Assembly (NCBI GenBank): GCA_041392955.1
Contig: JAWKLB010000001.1
Location: forward strand, 37,344-101,343
DNA length: 64,000 bases
Direction of reading: 5' to 3'
Origin: Chitinophagales bacterium
GTDB lineage: Bacteria > Bacteroidota > Bacteroidia > Chitinophagales > BACL12
Shown here: in pieces, positions 4,933-63,000 of the stretch
Layout of the letters: each line of letters begins with the position of its first letter
Numbering within the stretch: the stretch's first letter is position 1
Notes under the pieces: model-generated
Database searches by the model: none
Seen by the model: only the letters and a program-made list of their open reading frames with translations
Told to the model about the DNA's origin: nothing
Program-made: the position numbers and the translations under genes

Positions 4933-4948
4933 CATCCGCTCTTCCGCT

Positions 4949-5239
4949 CTGCAAAGTCTCCAGACTTGCAGTAATGCACAGTTCTGCAAAGTCTCCAGAC
5001 TTGCAGCACGCTCTGCTCTGCAAAGTCTCCAGACTTGCAGCACGTTCTGCTCTGCAAAGTCTCCAGACTTGCAGCACGCTCTTCCGCTCTGCAATGTCTC
5101 CGACATGCAGTAATGCACAGCTCTGCAAAGTCTCCAGACTTGCAGCACGTTCTGCTCTGCAAAGTCTCCGACTTGCAGCACCGCTCTTCCGCTCTGCAAT
5201 GTCTCCGACATGCAGAACCATTTCCTGGTCTCCGACCAG
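4949..5239 (+). repeat. Array of 8 GTCTCC-core palindromic units plus one short-stem relative
   Basis: Units start at 4949, 4984, 5018, 5052, 5089, 5123, 5157 and 5194. A short relative, CTGGTC-TCC-GACCAG, lies at 5225-5239. Linkers are drawn from three recurring sequence types. Confidence 0.9.
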
Positions 5240-7540: not shown

Positions 7541-7555
7541 CCCGCTCTGCACGCT

Positions 7556-7775
7556 CTGCAAAGTCTCCGACTTGCAGCAAACCGCTCTGCAGGCTCTGCT
7601 AAGTCTCCAGATTTGCAGCACTATTCCCGGGTCTCCGACCCATTTTTAACACGCACTGCAAAGTCTCCAGACTTGCAGCACGCACTACTGCTCTGCAAAG
7701 TCTCCAGACTTGCAGCGCTAATCCCGGGTCTCCGACCCATTTTTAACACGCTCTGCTATGTCTCCAGACTTGCAG
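7556..7775 (+). repeat. Composite array: 5 long GTCTCC-core units interleaved with 2 short-stem units
   Basis: Long units start at 7556, 7596, 7656, 7693 and 7753. Short GGGTC-TCC-GACCC hairpins followed by ATTTTT lie at 7629-7641 and 7726-7738. The higher-order period is 97 bp. Confidence 0.9.
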
Positions 7776-7883
7776 CATCAACCCTGTCTCTCACCCACAT
7801 TAACCATCTCCCCAAAAAAATTATCTCCAAACATTTGCGTAGTCAAATAACTACATATATATTTGTAGTCAAATAGCTACATA

Positions 7884-8684: not shown

Positions 8685-9074
8685 ATGCAAAAAAGAAACA
8701 GGATCATATATTGGATAGCCACGGTGTGGCTTTGCCTGGGCATGGTCTCGACCGGAAGTGCGCAATTACGTCATGTGCAAAAAGGTCCTGGGGCAACAGA
8801 GATGATGACACATTTGGGTTATCCTGTATATATGCTCACCATGTTGGGTCTGTTGAAAGTGGCGGCAGCGGTCGCCTTGCTTATCCCGCGCTTTCCTTTA
8901 ATAAAAGAATGGGCATATGCCGGATGTTTTTTCCTGATGTTCGGAGCAATATGGTCGCATATCGCAGTTGGGGATACCGTTGCAGAATTAATTCCTGCCT
9001 TGCTGTTAATTGTACTTACCATTGTATCTTGGTATTTCCGACCGACCAACAGAAAATTGGTCTCACCCGTATAA
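8685..9074 (+). CDS. DoxX-like membrane protein
   Basis: 129 aa with four hydrophobic segments. The pattern KVAAAVALLIPRFPLIKEWAYAGCFFLMFGAIWSHI is typical of the DoxX-like family. Confidence 0.6.
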   Translation: MQKRNRIIYWIATVWLCLGMVSTGSAQLRHVQKGPGATEMMTHLGYPVYMLTMLGLLKVAAAVALLIPRFPLIKEWAYAGCFFLMFGAIWSHIAVGDTVAELIPALLLIVLTIVSWYFRPTNRKLVSPV

Positions 9075-9085
9075 AAAATACAGAA

Positions 9086-9643
9086 ATGAAAAAAGAATTA
9101 TCCGCAAAAGATCGCGACGCCCTGATAGAAATAGTACACAGGCGTTTTGCCAAACATATGCACAGGCATAAAGGCATAACATGGGATGATGTGCTGGTCA
9201 GACTGGAAAAAAATCCGAAAGCAATCCACGCTTTACAGGCTATGGAAGAAACTGGCGGAGAGCCGGATGTGATAGAAAGAGATAAAAAAACCGGTGCGAT
9301 CGTATTTTATGATTGCGCAGAGGAAAGTCCGAAGGGCAGACGTAGTTATTGTTATGATTATGAGGCCCTGATGTCGCGCAAAGAGCACAAACCCAAACAC
9401 AGTGCATTGGAGGCTGCTGCTGAAATGGGGATAGAATTATTGGATGAGGAGCAATACAAGTTTTTGCAGCAATTCGGTCCTTTCGACAATAAAACTTCCA
9501 GTTGGGTAAGAACACCGGATGCCGTTCGCGAGCTCGGCGGAGCCATTTTCGGTGATTGCCGTTTCGGTCGCATTTTCATCTACCACAACGGCGCCGAATC
9601 GTATTATGCAGCAAGAGGTTTCAGGGGGAGATTGGTGGTGTGA
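9086..9643 (+). CDS. DUF4256 domain protein
   Basis: I moved the start to the in-frame ATG at 9086 (MKKELSAKDRDALIE...). The long ORF-track extension (8711) overlaps the DoxX gene. Motifs GGEPDVI...YDCAEESPKGRRSYCYD and TSSWVRTP are present. Confidence 0.6.
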   Translation: MKKELSAKDRDALIEIVHRRFAKHMHRHKGITWDDVLVRLEKNPKAIHALQAMEETGGEPDVIERDKKTGAIVFYDCAEESPKGRRSYCYDYEALMSRKEHKPKHSALEAAAEMGIELLDEEQYKFLQQFGPFDNKTSSWVRTPDAVRELGGAIFGDCRFGRIFIYHNGAESYYAARGFRGRLVV

Positions 9644-9765
9644 AGAAATGAAAAATGAAAAATGAAAGATGAAAAATGAAAAATGAAAAATGTCCGCCGG
9701 TAGGCGGATCACCCGTAGGGTGGAAAGATGAAAAATGAAAGAGGAAAAATGAAATCGGTAATCAC
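9644..9765 (+). repeat. Period-7 array (AAAAATG)n interrupted by a conserved GC-rich double hairpin
   Basis: There are 7 heptamers at 9644-9692. TCCGCC-GGTA-GGCGGA lies at 9693-9708 and CACCC-GTA-GGGTG at 9710-9722. Six more heptamers lie at 9724-9765. The 37-nt core recurs at 59832-59868. Confidence 0.85.
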
Positions 9766-9804: not shown

Positions 9805-9960
9805 AATGAGGAATTAGGAATGATCCGTAACAATAACAAATAGTCCCTCTGCGCCCTCAGCGAAGAACTCTGCGATTTGCCTCCCGCAGGGACGGCACAC
9901 TGCGTGAAATTTAGGAATTAGGTCCGAAGGACCCCTTAGGGGAATAATGAATAAGGAATT
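9805..9960 (+). repeat. Mosaic intergenic segment: GGAATTA-type heptamers plus mini-hairpin pair GGTCC-GAA-GGACC / CCCC-TTA-GGGG
   Basis: Heptamers AATGAGG AATTAGG AATGATC start at about 9805. Hairpins lie at 9921-9933 and 9932-9942. The same stem pair occurs inverted at 23472-23492. Confidence 0.6.
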
Positions 9961-19942: not shown

Positions 19943-19949
19943 TCCCGCT

Positions 19950-20049
19950 CTGCAAAGTCTCCAGACTTGCAGAACTTTATTCAGGTCTCCGACCTGCATG
20001 CTCTGCAAAATCTCCAGACTTGCATAACCTTATTCAGTTCTCCGACCGT
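19950..20049 (+). repeat. Two long plus two short GTCTCC-core palindromic units
   Basis: Long units lie at 19950-19972 and 20003-20025. The short unit CAGGTC-TCC-GACCTG lies at 19982-19996. A degenerate unit CAGTTC-TCC-GACCG lies at 20035-20049. Confidence 0.85.
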
Positions 20050-22120: not shown

Positions 22121-23293
22121 ATGCAATTTTTACCTTTGTATGGATATATGCCAGGCTACACAGGACCCGAAGACATATTATATATTTCCGGAATAGTATT
22201 ATCTCTCTTCCTTTCTTTTATTTTATTTTCTAAAAATAAAAAGACGACGCCCGATATCATCCTCGGGATATGGCTGTTGGTTTCCGGTGCCGATCTGTTC
22301 ACCTTCTTTTTATTTTTTACCGGTGCATATACGCACATGCCCGCTGTTACGGCGCTTGGTTTCCCTATGCCACTCCTGCAGGGACCCTTCTTATTTTTAT
22401 ATACAAAGTATCAAACCGGAAACAATGCTTTTCGCAGGAAGGACCTTTTGCATTTTGCACCGGCTTTGTGTTCCCTTCTGATGTTTTTCCCTTTTTATTT
22501 GCTTTCATATGCCGATCAGGTAAGGGTGTTTCAGGAAGAAGGGAAAGGATATATGGTGCAGATGTCGGTCAATGTGATCGCCATTATGGTATCCGGCGTA
22601 ATATATATTGTTTTGTCGATGCGGCGCTTGCTTTCTTTTCGCAAAAAGATCGTCGATCGCTTTTCCAATACGGATAAGATCCGTTTCAACTGGTTATTAT
22701 ATCTTATTATTGGTATTGCATGTATTTGGGTCGTGATCCTGTTCGTAGGAGAGGACCACTTGATCTTTGCTTCTTCGGCATTATTTATTTTATGGCTTGG
22801 GTATTACGGTATTAAGCAATCACAGGTGTTTAATCAGCATGCCGAGGTGGACTGGACCTATTTTACAACGAGCCAAGACCATGTGCAGGAAAATGAGATG
22901 GATGGATCCGAGCACACTAAGGTAAAATACAGCCGTTCTGCGCTCCAGGCAGAAGAGGCAATCAGGATACACAATGCGCTGCAAAAACGGATGGCGGAGC
23001 AAAAACCGTTTACGGATCCGGAACTCACGCTCGATGCACTTGCAGCCATCTTACAGGTACAACCCGACCACCTGTCGCAGGTGATCAACAGCCTGGAAGG
23101 AAAAAATTTCTACGATTATATCAATACCCTGCGGGTAGAAGAGTTCCTGCGCAAAACGCAGAATGGGGATGACATCCGTTATACCTTGCTTGCACTCGCA
23201 TTCGACTGCGGGTTCAATTCAAAGGCATCCTTCAACAGGAACTTTAAGAAGATCATGGGCACCTCGCCGAGTATGTATTTGAATAAAGGTTAG
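22121..23293 (+). CDS. Membrane-anchored AraC family transcriptional regulator
   Basis: The N-terminal half has about 6 TM segments. The C-terminus LLALAFDCGFNSKASFNRNFKKIMGTSPSMY is an AraC HTH. Confidence 0.8.
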   Translation: MQFLPLYGYMPGYTGPEDILYISGIVLSLFLSFILFSKNKKTTPDIILGIWLLVSGADLFTFFLFFTGAYTHMPAVTALGFPMPLLQGPFLFLYTKYQTGNNAFRRKDLLHFAPALCSLLMFFPFYLLSYADQVRVFQEEGKGYMVQMSVNVIAIMVSGVIYIVLSMRRLLSFRKKIVDRFSNTDKIRFNWLLYLIIGIACIWVVILFVGEDHLIFASSALFILWLGYYGIKQSQVFNQHAEVDWTYFTTSQDHVQENEMDGSEHTKVKYSRSALQAEEAIRIHNALQKRMAEQKPFTDPELTLDALAAILQVQPDHLSQVINSLEGKNFYDYINTLRVEEFLRKTQNGDDIRYTLLALAFDCGFNSKASFNRNFKKIMGTSPSMYLNKG

Positions 23294-23510
23294 GGGTTAA
23301 GGGTTAGGGGTTAAGAGTTATGGGTTAGGTGTTAGGGCCGTTATTGTCCATAGTACTTACTTTATGTCAGACTGTGACTGCGACTGCGACTGAGACTGGA
23401 CCATTGGTCATGAGGGAAAGATAATTGTTTAAAGCACTGCCTTCACATGCAGGCAGACATTCACCACTCACCCCCAAAGGGGTCCAAAGGACATTCACCA
23501 TTCACCATTT
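23288..23510 (+). repeat. Mosaic intergenic element: telomere-like (GGTTAGG)7, AGTACT anchor, (GACTGY)5, mini-hairpin pair, (CATTCAC)n
   Basis: GGTTAGG GGTTAAG GGTTAGG GGTTAAG AGTTATG GGTTAGG TGTTAGG lies at 23288-23336 and contains the AraC stop codon. AGTACT lies at 23352-23357. GACTGTGACTGCGACTGCGACTGAGACTG lies at 23369-23397. CCCC-AAA-GGGG and GTCC-AAA-GGAC lie at 23472-23492. Confidence 0.85.
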
Positions 23511-23581
23511 TTAACAGGTATCATCCTTCCTGATGATACGCTCTGCGCTTGCGTTTGCGACATCTTCGCAAAAAAAAGACA

Positions 23582-24583
23582 ATGAAAAAGTTCTTAGGTT
23601 TTGTTGGTATCGCCTGGTTGCTGTTGCAGCTAAGTGCTTGCCTGCAGGTAGATGAACCCGGAAATCTGGTCCCGAAAACGGTGGATGAGGATGCATCACT
23701 TCCTGCTATTTATGTGAACGGCGTATTTCTGCATGCCGAGGCATTTGGCCCGCCGGATAGCACACTGGTCATCGTGTTGCATGGTGGTCCGGGTTCTGAT
23801 TACAGATATCTTTTGCATTGCAAAGACCTGGCAGATGCAGGCTATCGTGTGGTATTCTATGACCAGCGCGGTTCGGGTTTGTCGCAGCGCTTCGACGCGG
23901 ATTATTATCTGGACAAAAGGGAAGCAGCTTTGGATCTTATGTATGACGATCTGAGTGCGGTCATTGCCTATTATCGTACCTCTGCCGATCAAAAAGTATT
24001 TCTCATTGGACATTCCTGGGGTGCCATGATGGCAACGGCATACACCGGTAAACATCCGGATGATATTCAGGGTCTGGTGGCATGCGAGCCCGGCGGATTG
24101 CACTGGGATGATGTGCGCACCTATATCTCCAATGAATTTGAATTCGGATTCTGGGGAGAACAATTGAATGATGCAGCATATATGGATGCATTCATCAGCA
24201 CCTATGCCGATGCACATGAAGTGGCCGATTATAAATTAATGCTGATGGGATCGGAAAACAACATTACGGGTGAGCATAATGTTGCACCCGCAAGTTCCTG
24301 GAGAGCGGGCGCAATAATAAACGCAACCTTTCTGCAAATAGGTGAGACCTATCAACCGGATCTGGCAGAAGGGATAGAACAATTCCATACACCGGTCCTG
24401 TTTTTTTACAGTTCAGATAACATGGCTTATCCCGATAGTTGGGCAGAAAGAATAACCGATGTGTATGACACCGTTGAAGTTATAAAGGTGAACGGAACAG
24501 GGCACGATGGTATCATCACAGATGCAGAAAAATGGCAAACGGTTACCATGCCGCACATACTCAGTTATTTTCAATCCAGATAA
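23582..24583 (+). CDS. Alpha/beta hydrolase lipoprotein (proline iminopeptidase-like)
   Basis: The start is set at ATG 23582, giving a lipoprotein-type signal MKKFLGFVGIAWLLLQLSAC. It has HGGPGS and the nucleophile elbow GHSWGA. Confidence 0.75.
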   Translation: MKKFLGFVGIAWLLLQLSACLQVDEPGNLVPKTVDEDASLPAIYVNGVFLHAEAFGPPDSTLVIVLHGGPGSDYRYLLHCKDLADAGYRVVFYDQRGSGLSQRFDADYYLDKREAALDLMYDDLSAVIAYYRTSADQKVFLIGHSWGAMMATAYTGKHPDDIQGLVACEPGGLHWDDVRTYISNEFEFGFWGEQLNDAAYMDAFISTYADAHEVADYKLMLMGSENNITGEHNVAPASSWRAGAIINATFLQIGETYQPDLAEGIEQFHTPVLFFYSSDNMAYPDSWAERITDVYDTVEVIKVNGTGHDGIITDAEKWQTVTMPHILSYFQSR

Positions 24584-38657: not shown

Positions 38658-38741
38658 CTATTCACCATTCACCAATCACTATTCACCATTTACTATTCAC
38701 CATTCACCATTCACCATTCATCTTTCCTCATTCCTCATTAC
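38658..38741 (+). repeat. Twelve-unit period-7 array (CYATTCA/CATTCAC type) ending 13 nt before a start codon
   Basis: The units are CTATTCA CCATTCA CCAATCA CTATTCA CCATTTA CTATTCA CCATTCA CCATTCA CCATTCA TCTTTCC TCATTCC TCATTAC. Confidence 0.9.
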
Positions 38742-38754
38742 CTTTATTCTGCAT

Positions 38755-40302
38755 ATGAAAGAAAAAATCGCTCTTCTCACGATACTTGCACCTTTTTCCT
38801 TTTCCCTTTTCGCACAAGAGGGCACATTGGATCCGTCTTTTGGTACCGGTGGAATTGTCATCACAGATTTTGAATATGCCAGTGATGTGGCTTACAGCAT
38901 GGCACTACAGGACGACGGCAAAATGGTGGTGGTAGGATTCAGCAATCTGGGTCCCGCTCTGCGCAAAGACATTACGATGGTGCGATATGATGCTGATGGT
39001 GTGCTGGATCCTTCCTTTGGCGACGGCGGTAAAGTGATCACGGATATTGGTGGCCTCGAAGAAAGTGACTTTGCATACGATGTGGCCATTCAAAACGACG
39101 GCAAGATCGTCGTGACCGGAACCACTATACCGGATGGCGGATATAAAATTCTCGTTGTACGATATAATTCCGATGGATCTCTGGATCCTACATTTGGCTC
39201 GGGAGGTTATATGGAAACCGATTTCGGCGGCATGGAAGAAATAGGGCAATCCGTGAAAATATTGGATGACGGAAAGATCATTGTAGGTGGATTTCGCAAC
39301 GATGGTTTGAAGCGCAACTTCGCACTGATCAAATTGAATACCGACGGCACACTGGATGATTCGTTCGGTACAGGCGGTAAAGTATATACTTCCTTTGCCG
39401 GCGACAGGCATGATTCTGGGTATGATGTGGAAATTGACAATGAGGGCAGGATAGTTCTTGCCGGATATAGTTATGTGGGAACATCTTCCGATTTTCAATT
39501 TGCGCTTGCCCGCTATATGCCGGATGGTTCGCTGGATGCAACTTTTGACGGCGATGGAAAATTGCTCACCGATGCGGGATTGTTGGTCGGACAGGCATAT
39601 GCGATGGTGTTGCAACCGGATAATAAAATTGTAGTTGGCGGATATGGTTACTACGGATTTATCGCAGATTTTGCAGTGGTGCGGTATAATCAGGACGGAA
39701 CACTCGATCCTACATTCGGAGTTGGTGGCATAACGCACACCGATTTTGGAAGTAATAAAGACGACTGGGGCTTCGCGCTTTGCCTGCAGCCCGATGGTAA
39801 AATATTACTTGCCGGTGCCGCGTTTGATGGATCACATAATAATGTGGCTATAGCAAGATATCGGGTGAACGGATTTCTCGATCCTGCCTTCGGTGGATCG
39901 GGAATGGTCGTCACACCCATAGGTCCGGCTTCAGAAGGTGCCTTTTCTATTCTTATGCAACCCGACGACCGGATACTTATTTCCGGATATACTTTTCAGT
40001 TGGGTGCCAATGACTTCCTCACGGCAAGATATAATCCGGTGGAGTTGGAGGAAAGTACCGCAGATACTTACGCGGAAACATATCTGCAATTGAGTCCGAA
40101 TCCCTGCAGCGATCACCTTTCCATACAAAGTAAATACGAGGGCCTGGCAACTATTTCAGATATCACTGGAGCCATCGTTTGGCGGCGTGAGATCGATCCG
40201 GGTGTCACCTACCTCTCTACGCAGTCCTTTGCTCCGGGCATCTATTTTCTCCATTTGCAGGGAAATGAAGGCGTGGCCGATTTGCGTTTTGTAAAACATT
40301 GA
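38755..40302 (+). CDS. Delta-60 repeat (DUF5122 beta-propeller) protein with T9SS sorting domain
   Basis: The start is set at ATG 38755 (MKEKIALLTILAPFSFSLFAQ). There are about 9 repeats of G.LDP(S/T)FG.GG......F......A.A...Q.DGKI.V.G. The C-terminus LQLSPNPCSDHLSI...GIYFLHL is a T9SS CTD. Confidence 0.75.
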   Translation: MKEKIALLTILAPFSFSLFAQEGTLDPSFGTGGIVITDFEYASDVAYSMALQDDGKMVVVGFSNLGPALRKDITMVRYDADGVLDPSFGDGGKVITDIGGLEESDFAYDVAIQNDGKIVVTGTTIPDGGYKILVVRYNSDGSLDPTFGSGGYMETDFGGMEEIGQSVKILDDGKIIVGGFRNDGLKRNFALIKLNTDGTLDDSFGTGGKVYTSFAGDRHDSGYDVEIDNEGRIVLAGYSYVGTSSDFQFALARYMPDGSLDATFDGDGKLLTDAGLLVGQAYAMVLQPDNKIVVGGYGYYGFIADFAVVRYNQDGTLDPTFGVGGITHTDFGSNKDDWGFALCLQPDGKILLAGAAFDGSHNNVAIARYRVNGFLDPAFGGSGMVVTPIGPASEGAFSILMQPDDRILISGYTFQLGANDFLTARYNPVELEESTADTYAETYLQLSPNPCSDHLSIQSKYEGLATISDITGAIVWRREIDPGVTYLSTQSFAPGIYFLHLQGNEGVADLRFVKH

Positions 40303-47309: not shown

Positions 47310-47605
47310 AATTCAATGTATCCGGATCAAAAACGATCAATACGGACTTATGTTGTACAAGGTATGCAATTAATGTAAAGAATAAAAAGTGCGGCGTCTC
47401 TTGAATGGAAAATGGCGCATGGTTGAAAAGTGAAGTCCCATTTTATAGCCGGTGAGCTGAACTCACTAATCCTGATTCCGCAAGAAGTCGCGGTTACATC
47501 TCCTTTAAATAATTAGTAATGATATTTAAATCGGCCCTGACCTTCCTAAGAGTCCTTTGGACTTTACCATTTCAAGTTATGTCTACCAATAACGACGAAC
47601 AAACG

Positions 47606-47825
47606 CACTATAGAAATTCCCCCTTGACCAGCCCACACACCCTGACCCCTGACCTTTTCTCAATACATAAAACAATAATAACCATCTAACTCACTACAGA
47701 AATTCATTCTTGAATAGGATGCACACCCTGACCCCTGACCTTCTCACAATACATAAAACAATAACAACCATCTAACTCACTATAGAAATTCCCCCTTGAA
47801 TAGGATGCACACCCTGACCCCTTTA
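47606..47825 (+). repeat. 86-bp tandem repeat, 2.5 copies, abutting the stop codon of the tail-fibre-like gene
   Basis: Units lie at 47606-47691, 47692-47777 and 47778-47825 (truncated). Each contains CACCCTGACCCCTGACC. Confidence 0.9.
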
Positions 47826-50800
47826 TTACTTACTTATCACCATCTGTTTCGTTGCAACCACTTTACCATCCACAACCAATGAATACGCATACGTACCACT
47901 TGCCATATTGCCGGATTCTATAACCAGATGTGTTTCATCACACGCGATCGGAATAACGGTGATCACTTTGCCTTCAGCACTGTTCACGATCATGATGCTT
48001 GCATCTCTGCAATCTTTGGGAATACGGAATGGTATCATAGTGGTATTATCAAATGGATTTGGAATATTCTGACCCAATAATGCATTTTCAGGATCAGCAG
48101 CCGAAACGCTTATGATGCCGTCATTGAGTTTTGCATCGGAGGCCTGCGCACTGAGTTCGGCTATTTGTGCCTTTAATGCCTCAATTTCTTTTTGCTGTTC
48201 TTCCAACTGTTCATTTTGCGCAGTGTTTACTGAATCTAATTCCTGTGCAGCTTTTACCAGTGGCACCACAAATTCCGCGTAACGCAATCCGTATAAATTA
48301 TTTTCATTTTGCGGTTTGTCCACTCCGGAAAAATCATAACCGATCTGCTGTGCTGCTTTCTCCACATCCTGCGCAATAAAGCCGGTATAAGTGATCTGTG
48401 CCTTTGCATCCAATGCTTTTTTATTGATCTGTTGAGTAACCTTGTCTTCGGAATAAATGCTGTCGCTTAGGATGCGATCCTCTTCCAGATGTCCGCTTAA
48501 AGCTTCCATTTTTAATGTATATGTTACCGGTTGAAGCAATTTGATGAACTCCAATCCCGGTACATCTTCCTGCACATTCTCTTTCATTCTTTCATCACTG
48601 ATATTTGTCCAGCCTGCATATCCGCCGATACTGGTCACTGAGCTATTCCCGATACGCACCTGATTGTCGGCATCGGTCCTTGCATTATAGCCAAGTGCTG
48701 TACTGTTGGTGAGTGAGAATGCGCCGTTATTTGCCGCATAACATCCCAGATACGTGCAGTTCGTATTGAAACTGTAAGAGCTGCCCGTTGACAATCCGAT
48801 ACCAATATTATATGAACCGGTGGTGTTGAATTCCAGAGCACCATTCCCCAGGGCAACCTTATTATGACCGGTGCTGTTATAATATAATGCCGACGCGCCA
48901 ACAGCGACATCAAACCCGCCGCTGGTATTAGAGTACAAGGCAGATGATCCCACACCTGTATTGGAACCTCCGTTGACGTTGCTGTACAAAGTGCGATATC
49001 CTATTGCTGTATTAATGGAACCGGTATTGGTGTATAAACTTTGATATCCTATCGCAGTATTATTCGAACCATTCGTATTGGAGTAAGATGCATTAAACCC
49101 GATGGCCGTATTGAACCATCCGTTATTATTCAGATAACTCGCACGGATACCCATAGCTGTATTGTATGAACCATTCACATTACTGTATAGTGTGGAGTAA
49201 CCAACGGCGGTATTTCCTGCGCCGGTAGTATTGCTGTATAAACTCTGACTTCCAATGGCAGTAAATTCATTTCCTGTTGTTGAACTGTATAAGGCATTTA
49301 CGCCCAATGCAGTAATTCCAATCCCGGTTGTATTATTATATGCTGCATAAGAGCCAACACCCGTGTTGCTGTCGCCGGTAGTATTGCTGCGCATGCTGTG
49401 GTCGCCGATCGCAGTATTACCATCACCATCTGTATTGTTATACATGGAAAATAAACCCATGGCCGTATTTGAATTTCCCGTTTGATTGGAATAGAGTGCA
49501 GATGAACCAAATGCTGCATTGAACGATCCGGTAGTGTTTAATTGCAGTGCCGAGTTTCCTGTGGCTGTATTGGAACTCCCGGTGGTATTTGTATACATGG
49601 CACGAAAACCTATTGCAGTATTCAGATCGGCCGTTGAATGATATAATGCCTCACTACCAACGGCAGTGGAATATGAATTTCCGGCTAAAGTGTAAGAAGC
49701 TTTATGGCCTATTGCCGTGTTATTGGTTCCGGTGGTGAGATTAAATAACGTAGAATCCCCCACGGCAACATTGTAGGTGGAAGTCCCGGCGTTGTATAAA
49801 CTATAACTTCCCACGGCTGTGTTATTCCAACCATATACACTGGTAGATAAAGCATATGCGCCGAGAGCTGTATTAAATTGTCCGCTCGCATTTTCTTTCA
49901 GGGAATAGGAACCAACGGCGGTATTGTATGAACCGATGCCATTGCTGTACATCGACAGGGCACCGATGGCCACATTTTCATTTCCGCCATGCGTATTATA
50001 CATGGAAAAAGTGCCGAAGGCGCTGTTGTTATTACCATCTTCATTTAAATACAGCACATCTTTACCCATACCGGTATTATTTGAACCTCCAACATTATTA
50101 TATAATGCCTCAGCACCCACGCCAACATTATTCAAGCCGGTGGTATTTGAATACATGGCATGACTTCCTATTGCTGTATTCTGACTACCCGTTGTGTTTA
50201 CCCACAAACTGGCATTTCCTACCGCGACATTTTCACTACCACTTGTATTATAGAGCATGGCCCATTCACCCAATGCAGTATTTTCATTTCCGTCTATATT
50301 GAATCCGAGTGCCGACAATCCAACAGCAGTATTCAGGGATCCCGTAGTATTGGTTTGCAAACTTCCGCTGCCTACTGCGGTATTGGAGTATCCTGTAGTA
50401 TTGGCATACATAGCATTTGATCCGATGGCCGTATTATAGTATGCAGTTTGATTAGCACGCAATGCCTGACTGCCTAAAGCGGTATTTTCTTCTCCTGTTG
50501 TATTATACCACATACTCTCATTTCCCACCGCGACATTATCATTGCCCGTTGTATTGTACGTCATGGCATTTTGCCCGATCGCAGTATTTCTATTGCCCAT
50601 TGTATTGAAAGCCAGTGTGGAAATACCAACGGCAGTATTCAGAGAACCGGCAGTATTATATTCCATGGAGCCACTCCCGACGGCAGTATTGGAATAACCA
50701 TCTACGTTATCGCGTAATGCGTCCGAACCTACTGCTGTGAGATAATAATGTGTTTCATTTGTTTTCAATGCATTATTTCCAATGGCTGTATTGCTGCCTC

Positions 50801-51788
50801 CGGTTGTGTTGTTGAGCATTGCAGAACTCCCCACTGCCACATTACTGCTTCCTGTTGTATTATTATAAAATGCAGAATCTCCTGCAGCAAGATTGTCTGT
50901 GCCGGAATTCCCCAAAGCGATACCTGCTCCGATAAATATATTTTGTGACCCCTGATTGGAAATAAATCGTTTATTATCCAGAAATACATATCCGTCGAGA
51001 TACAGATCCTTCCATGTATTTACCGTGCTTCCTAAACTATACGTAAAGGTGGTATTTGGAACAAGTGATTGATTGATCGCTGTTGCGCTCAGGTTAGATA
51101 AACTTGTATTCGCACCGCCACCACCACCTGCAACAGTGGTCCAGGATAAAATACCTGCGCCGTTCGTTGTCAGTACCTGTCCGCTTGTACCGTCCGCTGC
51201 CGGTAATACCCAAATGAAATTTGCAGCGATATTATCTGCTGCCTTGAAACCGGTATAATTATTTCCGTTCGCCGCTAATTCATTGAATCGCAATTCACCT
51301 GTTGCTCCGGCCAGCACATCGTAAGGTTTAATGCGGATGGCTCCGGGCACAGTGGGTGTGATATCTATCATGGCTCCCGGTGTTGCGGTGGAGCCGAGAG
51401 ATAATTTATTTTTGATATAGGCATTGCCGCCGGCTGTCGACCAGAAAACAGGTGCTCCCGTTCCGTCGCGGAACTCATACCGCGAATTCGTGTTGCTGAA
51501 AACCAAACCATAATTCGGATTTCCGGAATAGCGGAAAGCATAATGATCACCAGCAACCAAAAAATCGGCGTTGCCGCTGAAACTCAGATCGCCATCGAGT
51601 CCAAAAGCCGAATGATCGGCACCGGTTCCGAATTGGGAAATGCCACCTTCTACCTGCAAAAGAGTGGATGGCGTCACGGTTCCTACGCCCACATTTCCAC
51701 TGGCAGGAAATGTATTTGTTTGTGCACCAAGGAACAGCGGCGAGATAAAAAGGAAAACACTACATAAGCGGCGGAGCATTTTTTTCAT
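47826..51788 (-). CDS. Tail-fibre-domain adhesin-like protein: signal peptide, about 900 aa of NTA.G repeats, S74-type intramolecular chaperone domain, coiled coil, T9SS sorting domain
   Basis: The start is set at the Met giving MKKMLRRLCSVFLFISPLFLGAQT. There are dozens of roughly 14-aa repeats (NTAVG..AL..NTTG..). The motif GGYAGWTNISDERMKENV...YTGFIAQDVEKA...YGLRYAEFVVPLVKAAQEL matches the phage tailspike chaperone domain. The C-terminus QNIPNPFDNTTMIPF...GTYAYSLVVDG is a T9SS CTD. Confidence 0.8.
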   Translation of the reverse strand: MKKMLRRLCSVFLFISPLFLGAQTNTFPASGNVGVGTVTPSTLLQVEGGISQFGTGADHSAFGLDGDLSFSGNADFLVAGDHYAFRYSGNPNYGLVFSNTNSRYEFRDGTGAPVFWSTAGGNAYIKNKLSLGSTATPGAMIDITPTVPGAIRIKPYDVLAGATGELRFNELAANGNNYTGFKAADNIAANFIWVLPAADGTSGQVLTTNGAGILSWTTVAGGGGGANTSLSNLSATAINQSLVPNTTFTYSLGSTVNTWKDLYLDGYVFLDNKRFISNQGSQNIFIGAGIALGNSGTDNLAAGDSAFYNNTTGSSNVAVGSSAMLNNTTGGSNTAIGNNALKTNETHYYLTAVGSDALRDNVDGYSNTAVGSGSMEYNTAGSLNTAVGISTLAFNTMGNRNTAIGQNAMTYNTTGNDNVAVGNESMWYNTTGEENTALGSQALRANQTAYYNTAIGSNAMYANTTGYSNTAVGSGSLQTNTTGSLNTAVGLSALGFNIDGNENTALGEWAMLYNTSGSENVAVGNASLWVNTTGSQNTAIGSHAMYSNTTGLNNVGVGAEALYNNVGGSNNTGMGKDVLYLNEDGNNNSAFGTFSMYNTHGGNENVAIGALSMYSNGIGSYNTAVGSYSLKENASGQFNTALGAYALSTSVYGWNNTAVGSYSLYNAGTSTYNVAVGDSTLFNLTTGTNNTAIGHKASYTLAGNSYSTAVGSEALYHSTADLNTAIGFRAMYTNTTGSSNTATGNSALQLNTTGSFNAAFGSSALYSNQTGNSNTAMGLFSMYNNTDGDGNTAIGDHSMRSNTTGDSNTGVGSYAAYNNTTGIGITALGVNALYSSTTGNEFTAIGSQSLYSNTTGAGNTAVGYSTLYSNVNGSYNTAMGIRASYLNNNGWFNTAIGFNASYSNTNGSNNTAIGYQSLYTNTGSINTAIGYRTLYSNVNGGSNTGVGSSALYSNTSGGFDVAVGASALYYNSTGHNKVALGNGALEFNTTGSYNIGIGLSTGSSYSFNTNCTYLGCYAANNGAFSLTNSTALGYNARTDADNQVRIGNSSVTSIGGYAGWTNISDERMKENVQEDVPGLEFIKLLQPVTYTLKMEALSGHLEEDRILSDSIYSEDKVTQQINKKALDAKAQITYTGFIAQDVEKAAQQIGYDFSGVDKPQNENNLYGLRYAEFVVPLVKAAQELDSVNTAQNEQLEEQQKEIEALKAQIAELSAQASDAKLNDGIISVSAADPENALLGQNIPNPFDNTTMIPFRIPKDCRDASIMIVNSAEGKVITVIPIACDETHLVIESGNMASGTYAYSLVVDGKVVATKQMVISK

Positions 51789-51929
51789 AATCATGATTTT
51801 TGTGCATTGCATAATAGAATAAGGACAAACACAAAAATATCCGCCCGCTCAGAGCCATGAAATACCCGAATCCGAGTATGGGAAGGTTAGGGCTGGGGCA
51901 GGAGCAGGGGAAGTCACAGTCACAGTCGG

Positions 51930-52160
51930 ACTCAATTATGAGCTCTTATTGTTTAAAAAAGTACTGCCCTGACCAATGACTTCTGACCCCTAACCCTTGT
52001 CATATCGCAGCAGCAGCCCAACTCAATTATGTATACTTATCCTTTTAAAAAGTACTGCCCTGACCCCTGACCCTTGTCATATCGCAGCAGCAGCCCAACT
52101 CAATTATGTGCACTTATCCTTTTAAAAAGTACTGCCCTGACCCCTGACTCCTCTCACCTT
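51930..52160 (+). repeat. Tandem repeat (91, 77 and about 61 bp units) upstream of the tail-fibre-like gene
   Basis: Units start at 51930, 52021 and 52098 with ACTCAATTATG...AAAAAGTACTGCCCTGACC... Units 1 and 2 differ in length by 14 nt, i.e. two heptamers. Confidence 0.9.
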
Positions 52161-52203
52161 TTCAATCAGTATTTATTATTCTCTTGATTACTCATAATTA
52201 AAC

Positions 52204-52236
52204 CGGCCCTAACCCCTAACCCCAACCCCTAACATT
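52204..52236 (+). repeat. C-rich telomere-like heptamer array (CCCTAAC type)
   Basis: The sequence is CGGCCCTAACCCCTAACCCCAACCCCTAACA. The junction CGGCCCTAAC is shared with the inverted array at 23321-23340. Confidence 0.85.
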
Positions 52237-59500: not shown

Positions 59501-59816
59501 TTCAAAGAATTCGGCAACCATAAACCTTACATCCAGTTGTAAGTTATCAGATGAGAACACTCCGGAACTGTCCATATTCCCGAACCCGGCATCCAATGAT
59601 CTGTATGTGCAACTGCATGGTATACCATCTGCACAAGATGCATGGGTCTCCATGTATAACGCTATAGGAGAATTGGTATACTCCGGTCAAACAGAGGTGA
59701 ACAACGGAGAGCTGGATCTGTATCTCAACGTATCTGCATTTGTGCCCGCTTCAAATTATTTCATACGCATAGAAGCCGGCGGAAACGTATATACCGGACA
59801 GTGGACGAAGCAGTGA
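56532..59816 (+). CDS. T9SS-secreted SBBP-type beta-propeller repeat protein with MopE-like metal-binding motifs and two Ig-like modules
   Basis: The start is at ATG 56532 (MNHTQRSLLVLLCLLPSLIWA). It has repeats of YFGGSG.D.G..V.VD..GN.Y..G.T.S..FPTT, and DGDGYG...CNDLDDDCD three times. The module FCKGDHVTLNAN...YQWKRNGNIIPGA is shared with 5375-7540. The C-terminus LSIFPNPASNDLYVQL is a T9SS CTD. Confidence 0.8.
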   Translation: MNHTQRSLLVLLCLLPSLIWANQNTISENSVSGNSSAVFIENNGQITHPDGSAASEVLYTLRTAGLQVFVYKNGLSYQLSAKGDQVDHSAMLPGIDADLADMVVHASERTVRFNVILENANMLARVEALENTPYVEQYFTAKDQNQIRAGSCKKLIVHDIYPGIDWVLYVRDNTIKYDFIVAPGSDPAQIRFLVEGADAISTPQKDILQYSTTLGDVRDAHLSCSLQEDNMPVDASFIVEQQVVRFDVADYDRKKTLVIDPELEWSTFYGGEGEDAINGITISQDGFLYFTGYTHSSTNMAYLGYQMTYGGGNFDMYFVKMDTLGNRIWGTYFGGSEGDYGTGVNVDIDGNLLVSGFSYSPDFPTTPGAFQTAFGGNIDGVLIKATTDGEILFATLFGGSGVEYMRSVSSDSEGNIYIGGSASSDSLGYGASAHQIYVGGLSDECLVKFDSDGNRIWATYLGGTGDDYSRAVGVDLEDNVYLGGIATSANGIWFGVGYDSTWFNNNDGTVAKFDTAGTLLWSTYYGGNGDDNVNGLAFDEHNNVYVAMQAGSKNGLAYNGYLNFGFGKVDAVLIKFKPDGIREWATYYGGSFEDMGKAVAVYQDRVYLVGHSYSSFGVAVGGYQNYLVGFGDAMIVRFDTTGAFYWGSYAGGYDVDYGRGVAVSSEGTIYMGGKTFSYTFPTTDGAYQEVFGGDPADGFIQKISECPGTWYYFDYDGDGYGNSFFPVFACSPPLGYVLNDGDCNDFLASIHPGAAEICNDLDDDCDFLVDSDDPDAVGEPIWYFDGDADGYGDVNNTTAACEVPALYVADSTDCNDTMNTIYPGATEVCNGLDDDCDAMVDEDVIVAAITAGGPTTFCKGDHVTLNANTGVGYLYQWKRNGNIIPGAITGSYATNKGGNYTVDVTLPGGCADLSDITTVTVLTKPSANIVAMNDTDICVLGYCKLKTNSSPGFTYQWFWYGSPIPGATNNILNAIFTGPHYVRVTNASGCSKNSATINLTSSCKLSDENTPELSIFPNPASNDLYVQLHGIPSAQDAWVSMYNAIGELVYSGQTEVNNGELDLYLNVSAFVPASNYFIRIEAGGNVYTGQWTKQ

Positions 59817-59831
59817 TGGGAAAGGAATAAG

Positions 59832-59909
59832 AAATGTCCGCCGGTAGGCGGACCACCCGTAGGGTGGAGGAATCAGTAATCAGTAATCAGTAATAAGTAA
59901 TAGTTAATA
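59832..59909 (+). repeat. Second copy of the GC-rich double hairpin, followed by (AGTAATC)6
   Basis: AAATGTCCGCCGGTAGGCGGACCACCCGTAGGGTGGA lies at 59832-59868 and has one substitution versus 9688-9724. Heptamers AGGAATC AGTAATC AGTAATC AGTAATA AGTAATA GTTAATA lie at 59868-59909. Confidence 0.85.
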
Positions 59910-59942
59910 CTTCATTTGACAATAAGATTTATCATTCTTATA

Positions 59943-60012
59943 AGTACTCATTATTTCATCAGTCCTAACGCTTAACACCTAACCCCTAACCCATAACTCT
60001 TAGCCCATAACC
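59943..60012 (+). repeat. AGTACT anchor plus C-rich telomere-like heptamer array, inverted copy of 23288-23357
   Basis: AACACCTAACCC(CTAACCC)ATAACTCTTAGCCC matches the reverse complement of 23296-23327, except for one extra heptamer and one substitution. Confidence 0.8.
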
Positions 60013-60081
60013 CCCTTCCCTCCACCGAAGCAAAAAACATTTTCAGTAATCATACACACTCTTAGTAGCACCCCGACCAAT

Positions 60082-63000
60082 TTATTTTACCCATATCTCA
60101 TCACAAAATATCCATCTCGGATTGCCGGAACCCGGATGCCATTCCGGTATGTTGCCTCTGCCTTTTGCAATGAATTTGATGTATCTGCAGGTAACAGGTT
60201 TGGAGAGATCTATTTCCATATCATCAAGCTTTCCGGAAGTATTATCTTGTTCGGCCGTTGTATTTTCTTCTGTTCCTATTGTTTTATATTCCTGGCCATC
60301 CGTTGAAACCTGGATCTCCAGTGCCTCCGGCATCCAGATCCAGCTTCCGATATCTTGTAAAAATCCGGCGCCTGCCGACATGATCGGTGTTTCTGATCCA
60401 AGATCGAGGATAACGATCATATCGTTTCCCTGCCAGCCCTGCCACATACCTGTGCGAAAATCATTTCCGCCCCGCACGCCATCAACCAATGTAGTTGCGC
60501 CTCCACCGGTATATTGATGTGCATACTGTGTTTCATATTGCACAGAGTAATTATTGTTGAGTTTATGTAAAACGGTTTTGATGACAGCACTCGTGTTTTC
60601 CTTTTTATTGATCGTGATCGCACGAATAGTTGCGGAGCTATCCATAGTGAACGGTTTGGCATATAGTATACCGTTTTGTGCAGGATCAGAACCATCCGTC
60701 GTAAATAAAATGGCACAATCAGCACATAATGTGTGCATGCTGATCGTTGTGCTATCTGAAAATACGGTATGTGACGATTGGATGACCGGTGCAAAGGGGA
60801 TGTCACTGCTGAAATAATTTTCTGAGAATTTACCCCAATTCTTATTCGGTTCAGTGCCAAGTGTGAAAATGATCCTGGCGCCATCCAAAAGTTCCTGATG
60901 TGTAAGCAGCACATTTTTTCTGGCTTTGCCGTTCACTGTAATATCCTGAATATACTTATTGCGCTCATCCGGCTCATTAGCATAAATGGCTACCATTTTT
61001 CCATCAGCGGGGTGCAGATCTACACGGTCAAAAATCGGTGTGCCGAAAACGTAGGTCGGTTTACCGGGACATTCCGGATAAAAACCCATGGCGCTGAAAA
61101 CATACCAGGCACTCATCTGTCCGCAATCTTCATTGCCGATAAGGCCATCCGGTGCATTGGTATAAAATGTATACATGATCTGCGCGGTGCGCTCCTGTGT
61201 TTTATACGCAGCATTGCAGAAATCATACATGTATGCAATATGATGGCTGGGTTCATTGCCATGCGCATATTGTCCGATCAATCCTGTTATATCTGATTGA
61301 TCTCTGCCGGTTGTTTCCTGCGGCGCTGTAAACAATCCGTCCAATTTCTTTTCCATCGCTTCGGCCGAGCTGTATTCACCCATATATGCAGGCACATCAT
61401 GCGGAAAGAAAAAATGATATTGCCATGCGTTCGCTTCTGTATAGTTGAAATTCACTTCCCGCGGATCAAAAGGTGTGTACCAGCCTCCATTGTACCTCGG
61501 CCTGATAAAATCACCATCGAACAGATTGAGATAATTTTTACCGCGCAACCAGTAATTCCAATATTGACTGTCTTCACCTGCAATTACCTTGCGCAACTGT
61601 GCAATACACCAATCATCATAGGCATATTCCAGAGTTCTGCTCACCGACTCAGAAGCATCATTGCTTTCAATGAATCCTTTTGCTTTGTAATCTTTTAATC
61701 CGAAAATCTGCAGATTGGCAGAGTGTAGAACAGCATCCCAAGCGGTATCCAGATTGAAACCACCGATACCTTTAACTGCGGCATCTGCAATAACAGGCAC
61801 CGCATGGTAACCGATCATACATTCCGTTTCATTGGAGCTCAATTCCCATACGGGTAATTTTCCGCCCTGTTCATATTCTTTGAGAAAGGTTTGAATAAAA
61901 TCAGTGGTCCTTTTGGTGTCTAAAATGGTCAGCAATGGATGCAAGGCACGAAATGTATCCCACAAGGAGAAAACCGTATAATAGTCAAATCCCTCTGCGG
62001 TATGTATCTGCATATCTCTGCCTCGATATTTGTGATCCACATCCATATATAAATTCGGAGCGATCATACAGTGATATAAAGCAGTATAGAAAATAACCAT
62101 TTTGTTGGAAGGATCTGTTAACGGCAGTTTTACATCTGCACCATCTTGTACTATGATCCTTTCCAGTTCATTTTCCCAGACTGTGTTTGCTTGAGTACGG
62201 ATCGCATCAAAATCCCACCCGGGGTTTTCTGCATGCATATTGTTCCATGCACCCGCACAGGATACTGCTGAAAGAGCTACTTTGATATACAATGGCTTAC
62301 CATTGTTATCTGAGAAACCAAAGGAACCCTTCAATGCTGTGCCACTCAGAATATTGGAAAGAAAATAACCCGGACTTGTCTGCAGATCTATGCTGTCGCT
62401 CTGCAACTCCGAGCGGATGAACGGTTCAGAAAATTCTATGGCAAAATACAACCACTGGTCGCCGGCCCAGGATTTACTTCTGCGCAAACCCTGGATCTTG
62501 GTTGGGCTGATCAACTCGATATATGTTCCATCCAATAATTTATCGCGATGCGTGAGGTCGATGACGATATTTCGTTTCCCTTTTTTGCTGAAAGTATATT
62601 TATGCATGCCCGTTCTGAGTGTGGTGGTCATCTCAGCGAAAATGGAATCGTCTTCCAGCAATACACTATAATATCCCGGCGCGGCGGATTCGTTGGCATG
62701 ATGAAATAAAGAAGCGTATCCTTTTTTGGGGTCGTTATCCGCAATATTTTGTAAAAGCGGAGTTCCCGACATGGGCATCAACAAAATATCACAATAATCC
62801 GGTACGCCGGTTCCGCTCAGATGCGTGTGTGAGAAACCGTAGATGATGCTATCAGAATAATGATAGCCACCGCATGCATCCCAGTCGTAATATCCATCGG
62901 GCCTGGTATCCGGACTCAACTGTACCATCCCGAAAGGCATAGTTGCCCCGGGAAAGGTATGGCCATGTCCGCCGGTCCCGATGAACGGGTTGACATATTG

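Follow-up and report, generated by a model that had tools for sequence, protein, structure and literature searches.

The window analysed here is a 64-kb stretch of contig JAWKLB010000001.1 from a metagenome-assembled genome (MAG) of an uncultured Chitinophagales bacterium, and our subject is array A, a short run of G-rich heptamers between the gene for an AraC-family regulator and that for an alpha/beta hydrolase. The regulator gene occupies positions 22121 to 23293 of the plus strand and encodes 390 amino acids with HTH_18/HTH_AraC domains. Array A covers positions 23288 to 23337 of the same strand, is 50 nt long and internal to the contig, and lies 244 nt from the next start codon, the ATG of the hydrolase gene at 23582. 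We consider it likely that array A is a decayed heptanucleotide simple sequence repeat (SSR) with the sense unit GGGGTTA, that it belongs to a lineage-specific GGGGTYA/CCCTRAC family in the intergenic spacers of this MAG, and that it originated by slippage at the stop codon. The array is real but ordinary for its lineage.

The array is a degenerate G-rich repeat of seven units, in the order GGTTAGG, GGTTAAG, GGTTAGG, GGTTAAG, AGTTATG, GGTTAGG and TGTTAGG, and it contains five tracts of at least three Gs. The regulator open reading frame (ORF) ends AAA GGT TAG, where the last glycine codon and the TAG (23291 to 23293) are both supplied by the first unit. An earlier reading made from the letters alone (the sequence-only reading) had described a seven-unit array of the GGTTAGG/GGTTAAG type starting in this stop codon, and this is borne out by Tandem Repeats Finder (TRF) and by the TAG lying within unit 1. 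At a period of 7, TRF reported 7.1 copies with 79% matches, while a period of 14 scored better (23284 to 23337, 3.9 copies, 85%), and units 1 to 4 are an exact duplication of a 14-mer. The regulator has four residues after its conserved [ST]P..[YF] motif (23270 to 23293), compared to a mode of seven in 110 homologues. This short tail is compatible with array A having captured the end of the ORF, and the array may have taken over or cut short the variable C-terminal tail.

A repeat family in the spacers of the window

The census of repeats covers this one 64-kb window, with tandem repeats listed by TRF. Matches to (CCCTRAC)2 with at most two mismatches number 18, against 0.57 expected, and all of them fall within five intergenic spacers. 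The arrays at 23.3, 47.6, 52.0, 52.2 and 59.97 kb constitute one repeat family of this genome. Array B reads (CCTAACC)7.3 on the plus strand at 59963 to 60014, so that its G-rich strand is the minus strand, which is the sense strand of a GH92 gene whose stop codon (60082 to 60084) is about 67 nt away. Array E, (CCCTAAC)4 on the plus strand at 52207 to 52233, likewise has its G-rich sequence on the minus strand; it contains four C/G tracts and lies 31 nt upstream of the ATG of lemA (52265), with the G-rich strand being the non-coding one. The members at 52.0 kb, C1 to C3, are three copies of AAGTACT-G-(CCCTGAC)2-3 inside a 77-nt tandem repeat (51967 to 52148, minus strand), and those at 47.6 kb are (CCCTGAC)2 motifs carried by the units of an 86-nt tandem repeat (47587 to 47822, minus strand). 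The last copy in the 86-nt repeat, D3 (47812 to 47822), is 3 nt from the stop of a gene for a 1328-aa protein (47826 to 51812, minus strand), again with the G-rich strand as the sense strand. This gene encodes a Peptidase_S74 chaperone domain and is flanked on its two sides by these tandem repeats, the 86-nt one in 2.7 copies and the 77-nt one in 2.2 copies (51983 to 52148); every unit of both repeats carries (CCCTGAC)2.

The family is embedded in a wider background of heptamer repeats. About 12 period-7 arrays are present in the window, with many different units (TGAAAAA, GAAAAAT, ATTCACC, CATTCAC, CATTCCT, AATCAGT, CCCTGAC and CCCTAAC), and nearly all of them are intergenic. An array of the same class with an unrelated unit, (TGAAAAA)7.3 at 9641 to 9692 of the plus strand, has as its first base that of the TGA stop of a DUF4256 gene (8711 to 9643), and starting on a stop codon is therefore not unique to array A. 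TRF further lists a GAAAAAT array at 9723 to 9754, a (CATTCAC)2.6 array in the regulator-hydrolase spacer itself (23492 to 23509, plus strand), which is C-rich in the sense orientation and lies 73 nt upstream of the hydrolase ATG, and (AATCAGT)4.4 at 59871 to 59901 (plus strand), which shares its spacer with array B. Another run that is C-rich in the sense orientation, (ATTCACC)8.7 followed by (CATTCCT)3.6 at 38660 to 38739 of the plus strand, ends 16 nt upstream of an ATG at 38755. No common functional theme was found among the genes adjoining the arrays (AraC, alpha/beta hydrolase, DUF4256, DUF5122, LemA, GH92 and proteins sorted by the type IX secretion system, T9SS).

Several other small repeats share these spacers. 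A 37-nt element with two GC mini-hairpins (AATGTCCGCCGGTAGGCGGAyCACCCGTAGGGTGGA) occurs at 9688 to 9724 and 59832 to 59868 with 36 of 37 positions identical, and both copies lie 20 to 50 nt after a stop codon with heptamer arrays on each side. Triloop mini-hairpins similar to those of this element are found at 23464 to 23487 and 9922 to 9945. The most abundant dispersed repeat of the window is a 34-nt imperfect-palindrome unit (GCTCTGCAAAGTCTCCAGACTTGCAGCAC...), which resembles repetitive extragenic palindromes and bacterial interspersed mosaic elements (REP/BIME) and occurs in tandem and dispersed in at least four intergenic spacers (896 to 1065, 4942 to 5218, 7542 to 7777 and 19947 to 20047). 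The sequence TAACAGGT recurs across five spacers.

Placement in other Bacteroidota and state of the locus in relatives

The placement of heptamer arrays was compared in a control set of 80 Bacteroidota loci (L004-L083; 1.44 Mb) that had been fetched as relatives of the AraC-family gene, the contig scan giving relatives at no more than 45% identity. At TRF scores of at least 50, these loci contain 23 period-7 arrays, compared to at most three for any other period from 3 to 13. When the score threshold was set at 44, 39 of the 40 period-7 arrays were intergenic, although intergenic DNA makes up 13.6% of the sequence. Among the arrays with a G/C skew, the nearer ORF was on the 5' side of the G-richer strand in 31 of 34 cases, a proportion that became about 19 of 23 after orthologous Flavobacterium loci had been collapsed by hand. 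In this collapsed set, the sense strand is the G-richer one in about 14 arrays that lie 0 to 15 nt past a stop codon, and the C-richer one in about six that sit just upstream of a start codon. The rule of orientation also holds for every CCCTRAC array of the window: array A overlaps its stop, D3 and B come after theirs, and E is antisense to the lemA gene that it precedes. From these sequences the placement rule looks phylum-wide in Bacteroidota. We also considered whether a stop triplet within the heptamer, which would give stops in all three frames, might account for the stop-adjacent arrays. By hand count only about 7 of 14 such arrays in other Bacteroidota have a stop triplet in the sense unit. 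For AT-rich heptamers roughly 40% would be expected, which is near this figure, and the idea was therefore dropped.

No match to (CCCTRAC)2 with at most two mismatches was found in 85 loci (1.47 Mb) of other Bacteroidota. A scan of metagenomes for (CCCTRAC)3 returned at least 120 contigs of very diverse composition, mostly with a high GC content, and 81 of the 87 arrays placed on them lie outside long ORFs. With the crude gene maps available for these contigs, 28 of 39 arrays follow the orientation rule and 11 do not.

A protein annotated in NCBI as 'MAG: Chitinophagales bacterium' matches the AraC-family protein at 100% identity, and the next homologues reach at most 54%. In the two loci with the closest of these (L084, 54% amino acid identity, and L085, 51%), the gene order of AraC regulator, alpha/beta hydrolase and 223-aa protein is retained, but neither of the orthologous AraC-hydrolase spacers contains the array, and the two loci have almost no SSRs at all. 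The L084 spacer does contain AGTACgAGTACTTTAC about 30 nt after the AraC stop, without an array, which indicates that the AGTACT segment at the array A locus may be older than the array. Another feature of this spacer is the sequence ACAGGTATCATyCyTCCT upstream of the hydrolase gene (23509 to 23530 in the window; 3540 to 3570 in L084). It is kept in this 54%-identity relative, forms an 8-bp hairpin in the window and might serve the hydrolase gene as an operator or promoter element.

Array A and its spacer are identical in the Logan assemblies of two samples, SRR32022410 and SRR28338156, and array E and the TGAAAAA array are unchanged in SRR32022410. The length polymorphism that the sequence-only reading proposed to look for was thus not seen for array A in a comparison of two samples that probably represent the same population. 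The short-read Logan contigs of this organism were seen to break at repeats: one (L207) ends within the TGAAAAA array at about position 9672 of the window, and two others end (L001, about 23349) and start (L003, about 23356) about 7 nt apart, at the AGTACT just past array A. Repeat spacers of this kind fragment k-mer assemblies.

Origin of the array and alternative explanations

The most likely history of array A is a simple sequence of events. The heptamer of the AraC gene that contains the stop codon (GGT TAG G) would have been duplicated by slipped-strand mispairing, and later units would have been added downstream of the stop, at least one of these steps involving a 14-nt block of two units. 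Since the added units fall after the stop, they would have come at no cost to the AraC protein. Point substitutions at unit positions 1 and 3 would then have interrupted the array, making further slippage unlikely, and the array is presumably stable today. Stop codons contain G, A and T but never C. Seeding on them would therefore explain why G is present and C is scarce on the sense strand of the arrays that abut stops.

Several points weigh against this explanation. Slippage itself is something that we infer rather than observe, and no copy-number polymorphism was seen in the two samples, which probably come from the same population. Seeding alone does not explain those arrays that lie some bases away from stops or upstream of starts, and a selected role, as a binding site in a 3' or 5' untranslated region (UTR) or as a G-quadruplex (G4), may therefore be involved. 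The strong rule of strand and position could in the same way reflect selection for function and not neutral seeding. Finally, not every copy can have arisen independently in place, given the AGTACT at 14 nt, the CGGCCCTRAC junction, the hexamer arrays and the similar flanks of arrays B and E that are described below.

These shared flanks are the basis of the best of the competing explanations, in which array A is part of a dispersed modular element. The heptamer array with its 14-nt spacer and AGTACT, a segment rich in AT and an array of CAGT-type hexamers or heptamers would together form a non-coding unit of about 110 to 150 nt, copied between spacers by recombination or as a non-autonomous mobile element, after which the length of the array would drift. 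We regard this as possible, but clearly less probable than local slippage. It comes near to the sequence-only reading, which held that arrays A and B are inverted copies that differ by exactly one heptamer. A one-heptamer difference is not required by the data, since the best alignment, between the reverse complement of 23301 to 23336 and positions 59978 to 60013, is ungapped and matches at 33 of 36 positions, with three substitutions and no indel. The register first proposed (27 nt with one substitution and one 7-nt gap) is an alternative that the periodicity allows. Variation in both arrays is almost confined to positions 1 and 3 of CCCTAAC. In simulated independent arrays of seven units, with either this position constraint or a permuted unit order, at least three identical variant states (ungapped) or at least four (with one unit gap) occurred in 27 to 50% of cases. 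A simulation with uniform substitutions gave the raw A/B score probabilities of 0.22, 0.026 and 0.0014 at divergences of 12%, 17% and 22%, the observed divergences of the two arrays being 10% and 18%. Beyond the arrays themselves, TAAGTACT is all that can be aligned between the two loci. Because the shared variant units are within what chance would produce between independent arrays, and because the alignment with a 7-nt indel is inferior, we rejected a shared descent for the arrays at 23.3 and 59.97 kb; from the sequences compared, A and B are of the same family, but a specific common descent is not demonstrated.

Some of the flanks are shared within this genome nonetheless. As the sequence-only reading had noted, AGTACT lies near both arrays, at 23352 to 23357 (following the 14-nt spacer that begins at 23338 on the plus strand) and at 59943 to 59948 (5' of array B in the C-rich orientation), and its distance to the first CCCTAAC-type unit is exactly 14 nt in both cases. 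The window has five AGTACT sites that are truly intergenic, and each of these has a CCCTRAC array whose 5' side is no more than 21 nt away; three of the five are copies within the one 77-nt tandem repeat. General enrichment of the motif was rejected, as the window contains it 11 times, while 6-mers with its base composition average 14.3, and it is enriched only beside CCCTRAC arrays. The junction CGGCCCTAAC does recur as had been described, at 23331 to 23340 on the minus strand and 52204 to 52213 on the plus strand, with a variant, CGGCCCTGAC, at 47532 to 47541 (plus strand), and CGGCCCTRAC is found three times in the window against 0.10 expected. The window has only two non-coding hexamer arrays, both of the (CAGTCR)n type and located 32 and 39 nt from CCCTRAC arrays, and their side and orientation relative to these arrays agree. 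One is the (GACTGY) array of 4.8 copies at 23370 to 23398 (plus strand), which had been read as (GACTGY)5, and the other is its previously noted relative, which TRF reports as (AGTCAC)2.7 at 51912 to 51927 (plus strand), 39 nt 5' of C1. The 45-nt 5' flanks of B (59963) and E (52207), anchored at the array, are identical at 28 of 45 positions, where the null expectation is 11.8 ± 3.1, and in a gapped alignment the observed score was reached in 5 of 500 shuffles of the flanks. In addition, GGTTAGGGCTGG (51885 to 51896) and CCGGCCCTAACC (52203 to 52214) are inverted partners that match at 11 of 12 positions, and the pair brackets a 330-nt block with the hexamer array and the 77-nt tandem repeat.

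The case for a mobile unit is weakened by what arrays A and B lack. No inverted repeats of at least 10 nt were found in 23230 to 23600 or in 59800 to 60100, and the hallmarks of a miniature inverted-repeat transposable element (MITE), a conserved body bounded by terminal inverted repeats and a target-site duplication, are not seen at A and B, whose flanks do not align. The distance from AGTACT to the array is not constant, being 1 nt in C1 to C3 and 14 nt in A and B, and the orthologous spacer of L084 already contains AGTACTTTAC without an array. Neither AGTACT nor the CGG junction was present in any of 80 (CCCTRAC)n arrays from metagenomes, which led us to reject them as universal anchors of such arrays. 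For comparable repeats in other bacteria, Rehm et al. 2015 (PMC4692102) saw no link to mobile elements, and the evidence base for a modular element here is one 64-kb window. What stands of the proposal that the arrays are one element whose length shifts in 7-nt steps is that they form one family and that some flanks are common to them; the indel is not required, no length polymorphism was seen, and the notion of one element differing by one heptamer is weakly supported. Since some flanks are shared, it is likely on the sequence evidence that arrays were copied together with their flanks to a limited extent in this genome, and we read this as local duplication or recombination among spacers that comes on top of slippage.

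A second alternative is that the array works as a G-quadruplex or i-motif. The G-rich 3' UTR of the AraC transcript would fold as an RNA G4, or the DNA would fold during transcription, and thereby block exonucleases, cause pausing or termination of RNA polymerase, or insulate the downstream hydrolase gene. We think this improbable. With our own implementation of G4Hunter (window 25), array A peaks at 1.8 over 23286 to 23312, and its G-runs are GGGG-TTAA-GGG-TTA-GGGG-(11 nt)-GGG, as the sequence-only reading had given them. Because the third loop is 11 nt, the array fails the canonical G3+N1-7 motif, while it passes a relaxed motif with loops of up to 12. When G-quadruplexes were allowed in ViennaRNA, the minimum-energy structure included a G4 of three layers, but the predicted energy improved only from -6.8 to -8.0 kcal/mol, a gain of 1.2. 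For array E, the change is from -2.1 to -14.3 kcal/mol (a gain of 12), and this array holds the sole canonical G4 motif of the window. The predicted G4 potential of array A is thus marginal, and array E, in the upstream region of lemA, is by these models a much better candidate and the more suitable target for G4 work.

Other observations on the G4 explanation point in both directions. There are five G4-capable sites in the window and all are these intergenic repeats, the sense strand downstream of stops is the G-rich one, and the related repeats of Xanthomonas and Nostoc form G4s in vitro (PMC4692102). No terminator-like site was found in the AraC-hydrolase spacer. However, the same positional class includes units without G-tracts (TGAAAAA and AATCAGT here, AAGAAGA and TTAGATT in other Bacteroidota), so that G4 formation cannot be the shared property; array A is not conserved in relatives, and Rehm et al. 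(PMC4692102) identified no regulatory role. A structured RNA or intrinsic terminator at array A was rejected as well: Watson-Crick folding of the region was no better than that of shuffled sequences (z = +1.35 and +0.56), no Rfam covariance model matched at its gathering score anywhere in the window, and the spacer has no terminator-like site. No function is proven for array A; it might act as an element of the 3' UTR, as a weak G-quadruplex in RNA or DNA, or as a site bound by a protein.

The two ideas can be combined, and we hold the combination to be slightly more doubtful still than the G4 explanation. The GGGGTYA arrays, the AGTACT at 14 nt, the CGG junction, the CAGT-type arrays and an AT-rich arm would then be modules of an undescribed dispersed Chitinophagales element, kept at the 3' ends of genes as an RNA 3'-end or termination signal that acts through a G4 or a bound protein. 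If true, the placement rule across Bacteroidota would reflect a common function and not neutral seeding.

It is very unlikely that array A is a contingency repeat for phase variation, in which expression of the AraC regulator or the hydrolase would be switched as 7-nt units are gained or lost. SSRs are classic switches of this kind, seven is not a multiple of three, and the sibling array E lies within the lemA promoter region. Array A itself starts at a stop codon, and a change in copy number cannot alter the reading frame; moreover, the next start codon is 244 nt away, the interruptions (79% matches) suppress slippage, the array is identical in the two samples, and the neighboring genes show no bias toward surface proteins or adaptation. 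Phase-variable SSRs are near-perfect repeats in a 5' coding or promoter region with a polymorphic number of units, and array A does not fit this description.

A telomere-related sequence, eukaryotic contamination or an assembly artefact can be dismissed, because the sole argument in favor is the likeness of TTAGGGG to TTAGGG or TTTAGGG, whereas array A is internal, lies between two conserved syntenic bacterial genes and assembles identically in independent samples, several such arrays occur per 64 kb on both strands, and the AraC protein match is on a 208-kb contig of a bacterial MAG.

Comparison with known heptamer repeats

The units of eukaryotic telomeres are TTAGGG and TTTAGGG, and array A shares with them only a short unit in which T/A is followed by a G-tract, and a propensity for G4. 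The unit here is a degenerate 7-nt TTAGGGG/TTAAGGG, repeated seven times within 50 nt between bacterial genes, and not a long terminal array on a linear replicon. Describing it as telomere-like, as the sequence-only reading did, therefore captures a resemblance and nothing further, since several such arrays lie within 64 kb, in the company of many heptamer arrays that are unrelated to them. A motif in a bacterial spacer that looks like a telomere or a G4 should be judged against the repeat background of the genome in which it is found.

Heptamer repeats near genes have been described in several bacterial groups. MacGregor 2015 (PMC4679880) reported TAACTGA direct repeats in Beggiatoaceae, cyanobacteria and a few Bacteroidetes, as well as several heptamer direct repeats within Bacteroidetes spacers. 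As in our window, the TAACTGA repeats are intergenic heptamers near ORF boundaries with a fixed orientation to the neighboring gene, and the (AATCAGT)n array found here reads TTACTGA on the other strand, one base off TAACTGA. In contrast to the TAACTGA repeats, which are mostly directly upstream of starts, array A is at a stop and has an unrelated G-rich unit. According to Mrazek et al. 2007, as summarized in PMC4679880 and PMC4692102, heptanucleotide repeats are the most abundant class of long SSRs in most genomes, and polymerase slippage was suggested as their origin, with 7 nt possibly corresponding to the segment held by DNA polymerase. As far as the cyanobacterial short tandemly repeated repetitive (STRR) heptamers and the long heptanucleotide SSRs are described in those two papers, they resemble the arrays here in that several heptamer units form intergenic arrays, often several per spacer, with a lineage-specific distribution and a proposed origin by slippage in 7-nt steps. 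The STRR heptamers of those accounts differ in phylum and units, and the arrays in our window are interleaved with small GC hairpins and the 34-nt hairpin repeat.

The closest known system is that of Rehm et al. 2015 (PMC4692102), who described G-rich heptameric SSRs with the units GGGAATC in Xanthomonas and GGGGA(C/T)T in Nostoc. Those repeats occur genome-wide, are mostly non-coding and enriched between aligned ORFs, favor four units and form G4s in vitro as judged by circular dichroism (CD), and no regulatory role or other function was identified for them. The family described here agrees with this class in several respects: tandem 7-nt units, each with a G-tract and three to four other bases and commonly degenerate; many copies that are strongly biased toward non-coding DNA (the 18 two-unit matches of the window fall in five spacers); arrays between aligned ORFs, commonly with at least four G-tracts; the G-rich strand as the coding strand at 0 to 50 bp from a stop, overlap included, or on the non-coding strand just upstream of an ORF; and neighboring genes without functional bias. 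It differs in its unit, which is GGGGTTA, GGGTTAA or GGGGTCA compared to GGGNATC or GGGGA(C/T)T, and we therefore take it to be a new unit and not the same repeat. Its host is an uncultured member of the Bacteroidota with about 44% G+C and not a high-GC proteobacterium or a cyanobacterium, array A does not satisfy the canonical G4 loop rule, and some copies here share flanks (AGTACT, the CGG junction and the hexamer array) that are unreported for the class of Rehm et al. In structure and position, array A is a member of this class of G-rich heptameric SSRs. Taken alone it is of little consequence, being a further heptanucleotide SSR with a new unit in a new phylum, but together with the control loci it suggests that the stop-abutting, strand-biased placement known from Xanthomonas and Nostoc holds in Bacteroidota too.

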